Below, piece after piece: positions 38,795 to 49,451 of a DNA stretch of 64,000 nucleotides. The position numbers and the translations under genes are program-made. A model generated the notes under the pieces. It made no database searches. It saw only the letters and a list, made by a program, of their open reading frames with translations, and was not told the origin of the DNA. The stretch is taken from the NCBI GenBank assembly GCA_951406725.2, contig OX597823.1, positions 7,440,001 through 7,504,000 on the forward strand, written 5' to 3'. The first letter of the stretch is position 1, and every line of letters starts with the position of its first letter. Origin of the DNA: Octopus vulgaris. Lineage: Eukaryota.

Positions 38795-38862
<68 letters not shown>

Positions 38863-38926
38863 CAACAGGTACATTATTTTCATTATTTACATTTGACGGA
38901 TATTTGTCCTCATCTTGATTGTTGAT

Positions 38927-38972
38927 AACACAACGTTTCGGCTGATATACCCTCTAGCCTTCATCAGGTGTT
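38927..38972 (-). ncRNA. Minimal type I hammerhead ribozyme motif
   Basis: AACAC-CUGAUGA-A-GGCU[AGAGGGUAUAUC]AGCC-GAAA-CG-UU-GUGUU; stem I AACAC/GUGUU is perfect and AACGUU at stem III is palindromic. Confidence 0.7.
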
Positions 38973-39045
38973 TTGGGGAAATTTCGAACCTGTGTTCTCA
39001 TTCCTAAGGTATTTTTCGATTTGTTTTTATTATTATTATTATTGA

Positions 39046-39100
<55 letters not shown>

Positions 39101-39256
39101 TATTATTATTATTTCTTTACTACCCACAAGGGGCTAAACACAGAGAGGACAAACAAGGACAGACAAACGGATGTAATCGACTTAATCCGTTTGTCTGTCC
39201 TTGTTTGTCCTCTCTGTGTTTAGCCCCTTGTGGGTAGTAAAGAAATAATAATAATA

Positions 39257-39302
<46 letters not shown>

Positions 39303-39521
39303 TCACTGCCTAGAATCGAACTCGGAATATTGGTGTTAGTAGCCCGTGCTCTTAACCCCTACGCCATATGCCCCGATGGCTACTAACCCCAACATTCCGA
39401 GTTCGATTCCTGGCAGTGACCTGAATACTACTACTACTACTACTACTACTAATAATAATAATAAAAATAATAAATAAAAAAATACCTTAGGAATGAGAAC
39501 CCAGGTTCGAAATTTCCCCAA

Positions 39522-39567
39522 GACACCTGAAGAAGGCTGGAGGGTATATCAACCGAAACGTTGAGTT
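39522..39567 (+). ncRNA. Degenerate copy of the same hammerhead motif
   Basis: GACAC-CUGAAGA-AGGCUGG...CAACC-GAAA-CGUU-GAGUU; one mismatch each in stems I and II. Confidence 0.5.
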
Positions 39568-39759
39568 AACAACAAACAAGATGGGGACAAATTTCCGTCA
39601 AACATGACAATAGAAACGCACACACACACACACACACAGATACACACATCGTATACAAATATATGCACACAATTATATTCCTATATGTACATACATGCTC
39701 ATTATATATATATAAATGTGTGTATGTATATACAAATACATGTATGTATGTATCTCTCT

Positions 39760-47484: not shown

Positions 47485-48150
47485 GGGTCTTTACCTTTTG
47501 ACCGACAGATTTAAAAAATAACTTTTTGGAACTAAACACTTTCAAACTTCCTATGCTTGTAGAATGTGTCACATAAAACATCTTTTACGCTTGGCATTGT
47601 TGAGAAAATTCTGTATTTTGGAAGCTATTTCTTGTTAAAGTTGTCATATTTCGGTAATTTCAACCAATCAATAACGGGTATTCAGCTGAATAAAATTACT
47701 GCCGTTGTTTGTCAACAACAACTATCGGCGGTGTATATTTCGTTTGTCACTGTTATTTATGACATCGTTCGTGCATTTGCACTGGTTTAGCTTTAAGGTT
47801 TTAGGGTTAGGGTTAGGGTTTTAGGGTTAGGATTAGAGTTTTAGGATTAGGGCTAGGGTTTTAGGGTTAGGGTTAGGGTTTTAGAGTTACAGTTAAGGTT
47901 AGGGTTTTAGGGTTAGAGTTACGGAAAAACATGAAAAATGAAGCACGAACGATTCTGGTGGTGCCATGAAGTAAACATGCTTCAGATAAACTCGTTTATT
48001 CATACAAACGTAACTGAGATGAAAGATGTCATAAATAACGAAATATTCACCGCCGGAAGTTGTTGTTGACAAACAACAGCAGTAATTTTACACAGCTGAA
48101 TACACGTCATTGATTGGTTGAAATGACCAAAATACGACAACTTTAACAAT
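47485..48150. mobile_element. MITE related to 2493-3350 with internal (TTAGGG)n, right end lost
   Basis: Left end resembles the GGATCTTTTCGGTTTGAACGGCAG TIR and internal sequence is shared; inverted arms of about 140 bp (about 47630-47770 and 48020-48150) surround TTAGGG/TTTTAGGG repeats at about 47795-47920. Confidence 0.7.
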
Positions 48151-48286
48151 CTTATAAGAAACACCGTTGTAATCGTGTGCTGATTTTCAAAACAATAAAG
48201 GTGGCTTATTAGCAATCAGCACATGGTTTCAAAAGTGTTTCTTATAAGAATGACAAAGGAAGTTGAATTTAACCCTAGGTGTTAAG

Positions 48287-48343
48287 AGCTGCTGATGAGA
48301 ATTAAGGTGGTCTGCACCCAAAATTCGAAATTGTGATACAGCT
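48287..48343 (+). ncRNA. Type I hammerhead ribozyme with a fully canonical core
   Basis: AGCUG-CUGAUGA-GAAUU[AA GGUG gucug CACC CAA]AAUUC-GAAA-UUGUGA-UA^CAGCU; stems I and II pair perfectly; predicted cleavage after A48338. Confidence 0.8.
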
Positions 48344-48461
48344 GTGTACACTGGGGACTTACCTTCCTTTGTCAGTCATTAAGTACAGGGCTTTGGTGGC
48401 TTTAGAGTTAATGTAACTCTTATTTTAGCATAAACACTCTCCGCCACTTTATATATATATA

Positions 48462-49173
48462 TACGTTGAAGGTAATGTTATTTCTTTTGTGGAAACAACT
48501 TTGGTGGCTATACCAGAATAAGGAGCTATTTCTTGCACTAGAGTTAACCACTTAACGGTAACTCTCTTATATTTACGTATAAATTTGTATTGTCTCCCTG
48601 GTTTTTATGTGCTAGGCCACTTGGTGTTAAACTGATGGTATTATTAAATTAATATCTAATTTTTCACCCTCATTTATGAATTTATAAATTTAATATACTG
48701 CAGTAAATATTATATGCAGTATTCGTTTCCACTAAGTCTTACCATGCTTTTGGCGGGGAAGCTAAATCACAACTATGTATGCAATCGATTGGACCGCATG
48801 GGTATTTATCACCCGTGAGAGTCTAATAAATTGTATCGAAGTCAAATGCTGCTGATGACTTATAGATAAATATGTGAGTATAATTGCATATTATATTGAT
48901 AAAGAAACAATTGTTCAGCATTAATCTATCTTTTCGTTGTATTTCACTTTCCTTACGTTGAAGGTAATGTTATTTCTTTTGTGGATACAGCTTCGGTGGC
49001 TATACCAGAATAAGGAGCTATTTCTAGCACTAGAGTTAACCACTTAACGGTAACCCTCTTATATTTACGTATAAATTTGTATTTTCTCCCTGGTTTTTAT
49101 GTGCTAGGCCACTTGGTGTTAAACTGATGGTATTATTAAATTAATATCTAATTTTTCACCCTCATTTATGAAT
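48462..49173 (+). mobile_element. Retrozyme/Penelope-like element: a 492-nt unit plus a 220-nt terminal direct repeat
   Basis: 48462-48681 is repeated at 48954-49173; one hammerhead inside; (TA)n on both flanks; no ORF. Confidence 0.75.
48845..48922 (+). ncRNA. Type I hammerhead ribozyme motif
   Basis: AAUGCUG-CUGAUGA-[45-nt stem II]-GAAA-CAAUUG-UU^CAGCAUU; perfect 7-bp stem I and palindromic ACAAUUGU stem III; the first pair of stem II is a C-A mismatch. Confidence 0.72.
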
Positions 49174-49451
49174 GTATATATATATGTATATATAAATAAA
49201 AATAAATGCACCTTTTTAAAGCCTAGCCAGGCTCATGGGCCCAGTTTCCCGGTTTCAATGGCGTATGTGTTCCCTAGCTGAACGGGACGCCAGTCCTTCG
49301 CAGTGTTACTCACTTTTGCCAGCTGAGTGGACTGGAGCAACGTGAAATGAAGTGTTTTGCTCAAGAACACAACGCGTCGCCCAGTCCAGGAACTGAAACC
49401 ACAATCTTACGATCATGATGCTGACACCCTAACCACTAAGCCACGTGCCTC

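Follow-up and report, generated by a model that had tools for sequence, protein, structure and literature searches.

What kind of sequence is a non-coding insertion that repeats its own beginning at its end and carries a ribozyme-like motif, and how did it come to be copied into its present site? The question is raised by positions 48462-49173 (plus strand) of a 64,000-nucleotide stretch of the Octopus vulgaris genome (assembly GCA_951406725.2, contig OX597823.1, positions 7,440,001 to 7,504,000), hereafter termed the window. An original prediction made from the letters alone had described a circularly permuted 1.45-mer of a 492-nt unit with a hammerhead, either a retrozyme or a Penelope derivative. 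Our analysis leads us to read the window copy, with a probability of roughly 0.6, as a 5'-truncated member of a dispersed, protein-free family of 492-nt units that carries a covarying hammerhead motif and is likely a retrozyme moved by Penelope-like elements (PLEs).

Structure of the window insertion

The insertion is 712 nt long, corresponding to 1.45 units of a 492-nt non-coding cycle, and consists of a single arm that ends at a 3' end typical of the family (end B, see below). The near-identical direct repeats of 220 bp predicted at a distance of 492 bp were recovered: the 5' partial repeat (48462-48681) and the 3' repeat (48954-49173), both unit positions 1-220 on the plus strand, differ at 6 of 220 nt with an offset of 492, and the identity stops at unit position 221. 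The unit has a GC content of 32% and, as the prediction had it, no ORF, the longest ATG-initiated frames within the insertion being 32-34 aa. Both flanks are (TA)n tracts, again as predicted: a left target at 48450-48463 and a (TA)n-like target remnant at 49174-49196, both read on the plus strand. It had escaped the prediction that the left tract is also the 3' tail of an adjoining second hammerhead element (48150-48449). The 5' end of the insertion is a truncation point showing TA microhomology to the flank. At 49032-49069 (plus strand; second copy at 48540-48577), a hairpin, which folds in both young and old subfamilies, precedes a second family 3' end (end A, unit about 108-116) that is read through in this copy, and the tail of about 105 nt leading from end A to end B, delimited by the arm-end counts given below, occupies 49070-49173 on the plus strand. 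The term 'circularly permuted' thus applies to the 5' end, which is free, and has to be withdrawn for the 3' end, which is a fixed end of the family.

A dispersed family of 492-nt units

The 2.8-Gb assembly was searched for relatives of the unit. A whole-unit search returned 1701 first-look candidates; the 40 that were scored aligned over long stretches at 84-97% identity and were spread across more than 20 contigs. Exact matches to a 27-nt motif from the 3' half of the hammerhead numbered 193 and those to a 20-nt tail motif of the young subfamily 120, implying a few hundred arms. From these searches 90 and then 9 loci were fetched and 27 same-place duplicates removed, leaving 72 loci for analysis (29 from the whole-unit, 21 from the hammerhead-motif, 20 from the tail-motif and 2 from the tandem-motif search). 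The existence of other genomic copies with the same terminal redundancy, proposed as a check of the original prediction, was thereby established many times over. Non-LTR retrozymes as a class are known from molluscs as well as from other animals, and the 492-nt family is likely new within it: the literature searched held no description of this family, with Repbase, Dfam and supplementary files (e.g. Craig 2021 file S1, Octopus PLEs) lying outside that search and possibly holding one. A putative splice donor at unit positions 9-14 is not claimed, being lost in the old subfamily.

Insertion ends carry a Penelope-like footprint

The 72 loci comprise 112 arms, the 3' ends of which fall at two sites about 105 nt apart, 59 at site B (unit about 220) and 46 at site A (unit about 108-116), with 7 at other positions; the A ends and the B ends are followed by (TA)n. 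The 5' ends in the 72 loci are scattered over the whole unit. Two arms lie head-to-head in 35 of the 72 loci and, where both ends could be classified, an A end was paired with a B end in 29 of 32 cases (p 1.3e-6), a proportion of 23/25 being found in loci that had not been selected by the tail motif. One two-hammerhead copy (L011, 1368-1973) has its 3' end just past the second hammerhead, at unit position 471, which is neither A nor B.

In their account of PLEs, Craig 2021 (PMC8557442) report 5' truncation, partial tandems, an inverted arm and (TA)n targets, together with a tail of 30-40 nt that is often present at one end only. The octopus family displays fixed 3' ends, 5' truncation, partial tandems, an inverted 5'-truncated arm and a preference for (TA)n as in Neptune and Naiad, and judged by sequence its end pattern is a PLE footprint.

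A variant hammerhead motif maintained across the family

The type I hammerhead motif lies at 48845-48922 (plus strand throughout) and is composed of stem I, AAUGCUG at 48845-48851 pairing with CAGCAUU at 48916-48922, the core segment CUGAUGA at 48852-48858, a long stem II at 48860-48902, GAA at 48904-48906 and a palindromic stem III, ACAAUUGU, at 48907-48914, which is predicted to form a helix in a dimer; cleavage is predicted after U48915 (U17). The single hammerhead with its 7-bp stem I and palindromic stem III stands as originally predicted, confirmed by the sequence and by covariation in the family, with one oversight: C48859 faces A48903 in the window copy at the position usually held by the pair G10.1-C11.1. 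This pair is the standard one in hammerheads (PMC544870, PMC11300833) and highly conserved in those of PLEs (Cervera 2014, PMC4209133).

Taken alone, the window motif is unconvincing. Scanning it with the Rfam hammerhead models, as had been proposed, gave no hammerhead match at E<=5 or E<=10, shuffled sequences fold just as well (z -0.13), and a generic hammerhead pattern missed it because stem II exceeds the gap allowed. An 18-nt pattern taken from the window's own hammerhead matches only the window copy, owing to a private base. The reality of the motif therefore rests on family evidence. RNAalifold recovered the three-way junction unaided from the family alignment. A covariation set was assembled from 64 hammerhead extracts by removing 11 partial and 10 further ones (8 identical, 2 rearranged), and in the resulting 43 distinct rows 96.8% of the hammerhead stem cells are able to pair, compared to 28-50% in slid controls. 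Two-sided compensatory changes are found in 23 cells against 5.1 in shuffles, a value reached by 0/500, with the reservation that relatedness among copies inflates cell counts; counted by pairs, 4 show two-sided change, which is not exceptional (reached by 34/500 shuffles). Compensated stem I variants in the family include UGCUG/CAGCA, UACUG/CAGUA and UGCCG/CGGCA, as well as bulged forms such as CCUCUG/CAGGG.

The conservation of the core relative to its flanks, another check proposed at the outset, was borne out in the 29 loci of the whole-unit search: variation amounts to 2.1% at 16 core and palindrome positions and to 5.3% elsewhere (Fisher p 1e-4; U4 and N7 excluded, cells not independent). 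Core and palindrome are also kept across subfamilies that are only about 80% alike. The 72 loci contain 63 complete motifs, among them 39 with CUGAUGA, 12 with CCGAUGA (U4C) and 3 with CUGAAGA. When these are set against the minimal PLE hammerhead as outlined by Cervera 2014 (PMC4209133), the palindromic 15.2-16.2 segment and loop 3 are found in 62/63, ACAAUUGU being intact in that number, and G10.1-C11.1 in 0/63. Positions 10.1/11.1 are instead U-A in 20 motifs, U.U in 20, C.A in 13, A.A in 5 and A.G in 5, and the C.A of the window copy is a subfamily trait and not damage. The calculated stability of stem III is -6.4 kcal/mol as a self-duplex and +2.4 kcal/mol as a 2-bp hairpin, so that, according to this model, the palindrome favours a dimer. 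For PLE hammerheads, Cervera 2014 (PMC4209133) report low activity in vitro, by dimers only. From its pattern of change, the octopus hammerhead motif appears to be under selection across the family.

These data bear directly on the most trivial account of the locus, a tandem duplication at the DNA level or a minisatellite in which a hammerhead-like motif arose by chance. The failure of the Rfam models and the ordinary folding of the isolated motif are what such an origin would give; the dispersal over more than 20 contigs, the fixed 3' ends, the pairing of A and B arms, the covariation and the conservation of the core are at odds with it, and we consider it refuted by the family-wide end pattern.

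A non-autonomous family and its probable PLE relatives

All 25 tandem pairs pass without interruption from end B into the segment preceding the hammerhead, which closes a cycle of 492 nt, and no shared sequence was found among the 5' flanks of 33 single arms. No contiguous PLE ORF (RT plus GIY-YIG) was present in the 72 loci with flanks of about 1.5 kb. Three tblastn matches to PLEs were obtained in these loci, none contiguous with the element; L021 and L108 gave weak matches more than 1 kb away, and L164, initially considered as a PLE-linked copy, carries a separate facing insertion in the same (TA)n. The 492-nt family accordingly reads as non-autonomous, and its assignment to the non-autonomous PLE derivatives, i.e. 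to the non-LTR retrozymes, is very likely correct. The original choice of a retrozyme or a Penelope-derived element is hence supported, by the dispersed copies, the terminal redundancy, the conserved core and the covarying stems. The two routes offered with it, reverse transcription around a circle and pLTR formation, fared differently: PLE-type integration and a closed, ORF-free unit were found, and the routes turn out not to exclude each other.

The unit could alternatively be a pLTR that has become detached from an autonomous PLE, the loci representing 5'-truncated copies of that element. PLEs leave the identical footprint, and some copies of a sister family have GIY-YIG fragments nearby. 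This origin is nevertheless largely refuted and in our view highly improbable, given that end B runs straight into pre-hammerhead sequence in 25/25 tandem pairs within an ORF-free 492-nt cycle, that the 33 flanks have no 5' extension in common, and that the GIY-YIG fragments are separate insertions divided by a microsatellite. The sister family is itself non-coding (L161, L142 and L128-L157; 708 exact motif matches) and is 72-75% alike over unit positions 61-232, with a period of 540 in L161; it has a homologous hammerhead with CCGAUGA, U.U at 10.1/11.1 and ACAUGU as stem III, and shares end B with the 492-nt family. A candidate junction between this family and a GIY-YIG ORF was rejected, as longer regions revealed separate insertions split by microsatellite.

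A search for an autonomous partner gave no nucleotide match of the unit to 36 PLE loci, the best hit (E 0.017) lying in AT-rich DNA; the loci compared were 30 with GIY-YIG, fetched after scoring 150 of 6136 candidates, and 6 longer Neptune-like ones. Among the Neptune-like PLEs, one at L062 (352-5170), also seen in L063-L065, is near-intact with a period of about 4.8 kb. Its 781-aa frames are open in many copies and encode a CxxxxCxxC linker, and the ORF matches RT and GIY-YIG (the RT just below the Pfam cut-off). This element carries a U3-A8 variant of the hammerhead with a palindromic stem III, has (TA)n ends, and shows two 3' ends that are 38 nt apart, the 38-nt tail being present at 4/15 of its 3' ends. 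It is a candidate helper of the 492-nt family, which, to judge from the mapped ends, is likewise built with two alternative ends, its tail measuring about 105 nt.

Circular or linear template

In the 492-nt family, the predicted cut site is read through a single time in 65 arms and twice in 11. 5' ends do not pile up at this site (2 seen, 2.5 expected). The median difference between tandem repeats is 2.9% inside one locus and 6.4% relative to other loci, and the nearest other copy differs by 1.6%, closer than the within-locus repeat, as expected from independent decay of copies from shared sources. No position-specific variant distinguishing the 5' turn from the 3' turn recurs more than twice in 50 loci. 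Together, the similarity within loci and the lack of recurrent differences between turns indicate that the repeats of any one tandem were regenerated from a single monomer sequence. Folded as a circle, the monomer reaches -117 kcal/mol, compared to -93.5 +/- 6.2 in shuffles (z -3.8; 0/60 reach it).

The longest of the 112 arms has about 1.85 units, without long arrays, and an exact tandem-motif search that detected 9 pairs found no trimer. The lack of trimers is weak evidence, since by our estimate less than one would be expected where some 200 or more motifs contain 9 pairs. In assembled contigs from five presumed-RNA and three unlabelled public runs, family sequence occurs with loose ends into (TA)n, which can reveal neither a circle nor an empty site; the same contigs contain no within-unit joints in one comparison and no piece spanning the window locus. 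Of the public runs that contain the family, none is recorded as RNA. The two tandem hammerheads of one locus, L005 (1526-1611 and 2020-2105), each have C3G, a change expected to disable the core, so that at least one round of copying may not have needed an active core of its own; in L004, both arms share one stem I mismatch. These two loci suggest copying from one template without such a need. A chimeric monomer of 577 nt, cut at 48338 in the neighbouring element and at 48915, was also considered and judged unlikely, as the stem III palindromes are not complementary.

A non-autonomous PLE derivative could instead be copied from a linear template. This might be a monomer released by cleavage or a transcript longer than one unit that had stayed uncut; the partial tandem would be rebuilt by template jumping of the PLE RT, and the hammerhead would be weak or serve only in end trimming. 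Template jumping of this kind would result in a very similar pattern, and Naiad PLEs make partial tandems without canonical hammerheads (PMC8557442). No arm beyond about 1.85 units and no trimer were seen, positions 10.1/11.1 are non-standard, and the C3G changes in both L005 motifs point the same way. Over-unit copying should, however, shorten the copies at each round and leave position-specific variants, none of which recurs more than two times; a cleaved monomer should give 5' ends at unit position 455, which were not observed; and the core and palindrome are conserved across subfamilies about 80% alike. On balance we regard a linear template as possible though unlikely, and, granted the class, favor a circular one with modest confidence.

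With a circular template, copying would proceed as follows. Transcription would start from a locus of the rare kind that has two hammerheads in tandem; pairing of the two motifs via the palindromic stem III would excise a 492-nt monomer; and a host ligase would close it into a circle. A PLE GIY-YIG endonuclease would then nick the (TA)n target, and the RT of the PLE would prime on the RNA at a UAUA-containing site, A or B. Synthesis would proceed backwards across the hammerhead junction and cover at most about 1.9 turns; an inverted arm would arise if the other site were primed as well. For the window copy, priming would have been at B and the RT would have stopped after 712 nt. We consider this entire chain, circular template included, to stand at slightly better than even odds.

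Two tandem hammerheads were found in 9 loci by the tandem-motif search, and in L003, L011 and L015 both motifs are complete with CUGAUGA. Li 2026 (bioRxiv 10.64898/2026.07.22.740005) takes two hammerheads as the mark of an 'active' copy; the 9 loci have two, the window copy only one. Having a single hammerhead, the window copy is probably a dead end rather than a source of circles, and could free a monomer only with complementation in trans; L003, L011, L015 and similar loci are the likely donors. The family thus supplies three natural two-hammerhead loci that are directly testable. In Li 2026, of nine predicted Xenopus dimers, 8/9 were without cleavage in vitro and 1/9 was active.

A more specific reading, which we advance tentatively, is that the family combines an active hammerhead variant, tolerating a free 10.1/11.1 mismatch above a long stem II, with a circle bearing two priming sites 105 nt apart, one for each DNA strand, such that two-armed insertions would record the priming by a PLE RT of both nicked (TA)n strands on one small circular RNA. 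If so, the family would be a compact test system for the way in which PLEs build pLTRs, tails and inverted arms, and if its hammerhead cleaves, the range of hammerhead cores would be extended. The way in which PLEs make partial tandems, tails and inverted arms, and the transport of retrozymes by PLE enzymes by way of circles, have so far been proposals, for which this family offers clean genomic statistics.

Relation to known retrozymes and Penelope-like elements

Circular RNAs of non-LTR retrozymes are reported from coral, mussel and axolotl by Cervera and de la Pena 2020 (PMC7229834), who also define this class and name PLEs as likely helpers, and Li, Clavereau and Pollet 2026 (bioRxiv 10.64898/2026.07.22.740005) tie retrozymes to the pLTRs of PLEs. 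The octopus family shares with metazoan non-LTR retrozymes a non-coding unit of low GC content, one type I hammerhead per unit and, at the level of the family, tandems exceeding one unit, as well as a well-folded predicted circle and coexistence with PLEs, from which retrozymes are proposed to derive and by which they are proposed to be mobilised. It differs from them in the length of its unit, 492 nt as against about 170-400 nt in the invertebrate examples given in those sources (PMC7229834; Li 2026), and in its hammerhead, which has a long stem II and lacks G10.1-C11.1. Its copies are dispersed and partial, the largest being 1.85-mers, and no arrays were seen, whereas arrays are common, albeit not universal, among retrozymes; its circular RNA is a prediction.

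The hammerhead resembles those in the pLTRs of EN+ PLEs such as Neptune and Poseidon (PMC4209133, PMC8557442) in being of type I, with a short palindromic stem III, a predicted dimer and a larger-than-usual helix II, and the insertions resemble EN+ PLEs (PMC8557442) in their 5' truncation, partial tandems, inverted arms, one-end tail and (TA)n targets. Unlike EN+ PLEs, the family has no RT-EN ORF, a tail of about 105 nt instead of 30-40 nt, a free 10.1/11.1 position and no sequence match to the 36 PLE loci compared. The closest parallel in organisation is provided by non-autonomous Chlamys PLEs such as MRC1 (Craig 2021, PMC8557442), which are likewise ORF-less, form pLTRs and insert head-to-tail. 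As described there, the Chlamys elements generally match an autonomous partner at their 3' end and most are without hammerheads, whereas the octopus family bears hammerheads and has so far been matched to no partner.

Neighbouring elements in the window

The element adjoining the insertion on its left (48150-48449, plus strand) is a copy of a second hammerhead family and lies outside the 492-nt unit; it comprises a hammerhead at 48287-48343 and a short inverted arm at 48150-48214. A total of 490 candidates of this family were found, with a period of about 322-334 at other loci. Its motif at 48287-48343 contains G10.1-C11.1 and a wobble palindrome, and the family has a hairpin and TTTGGTGGCT in common with the 492-nt family. 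The window copy sits in the (TA)n tail of this older, different element. Other repeats are present nearby. At 38860-39600, two hammerhead-like motifs with palindromic stem III lie head-to-head (38924-38967 on the minus strand, 39527-39568 on the plus strand) with adjoining microsatellites, representing a third family of PLE type. The segment 47632-48149 has 113-nt inverted termini (90%) around a TTAGGG-like tract (47790-47921); it is MITE-like and of high depth in the public contigs. Finally, a SINE-like repeat of very high copy number follows directly after the element at 49200-49445, with a depth in the public contigs about 1000-fold above that of the unit.
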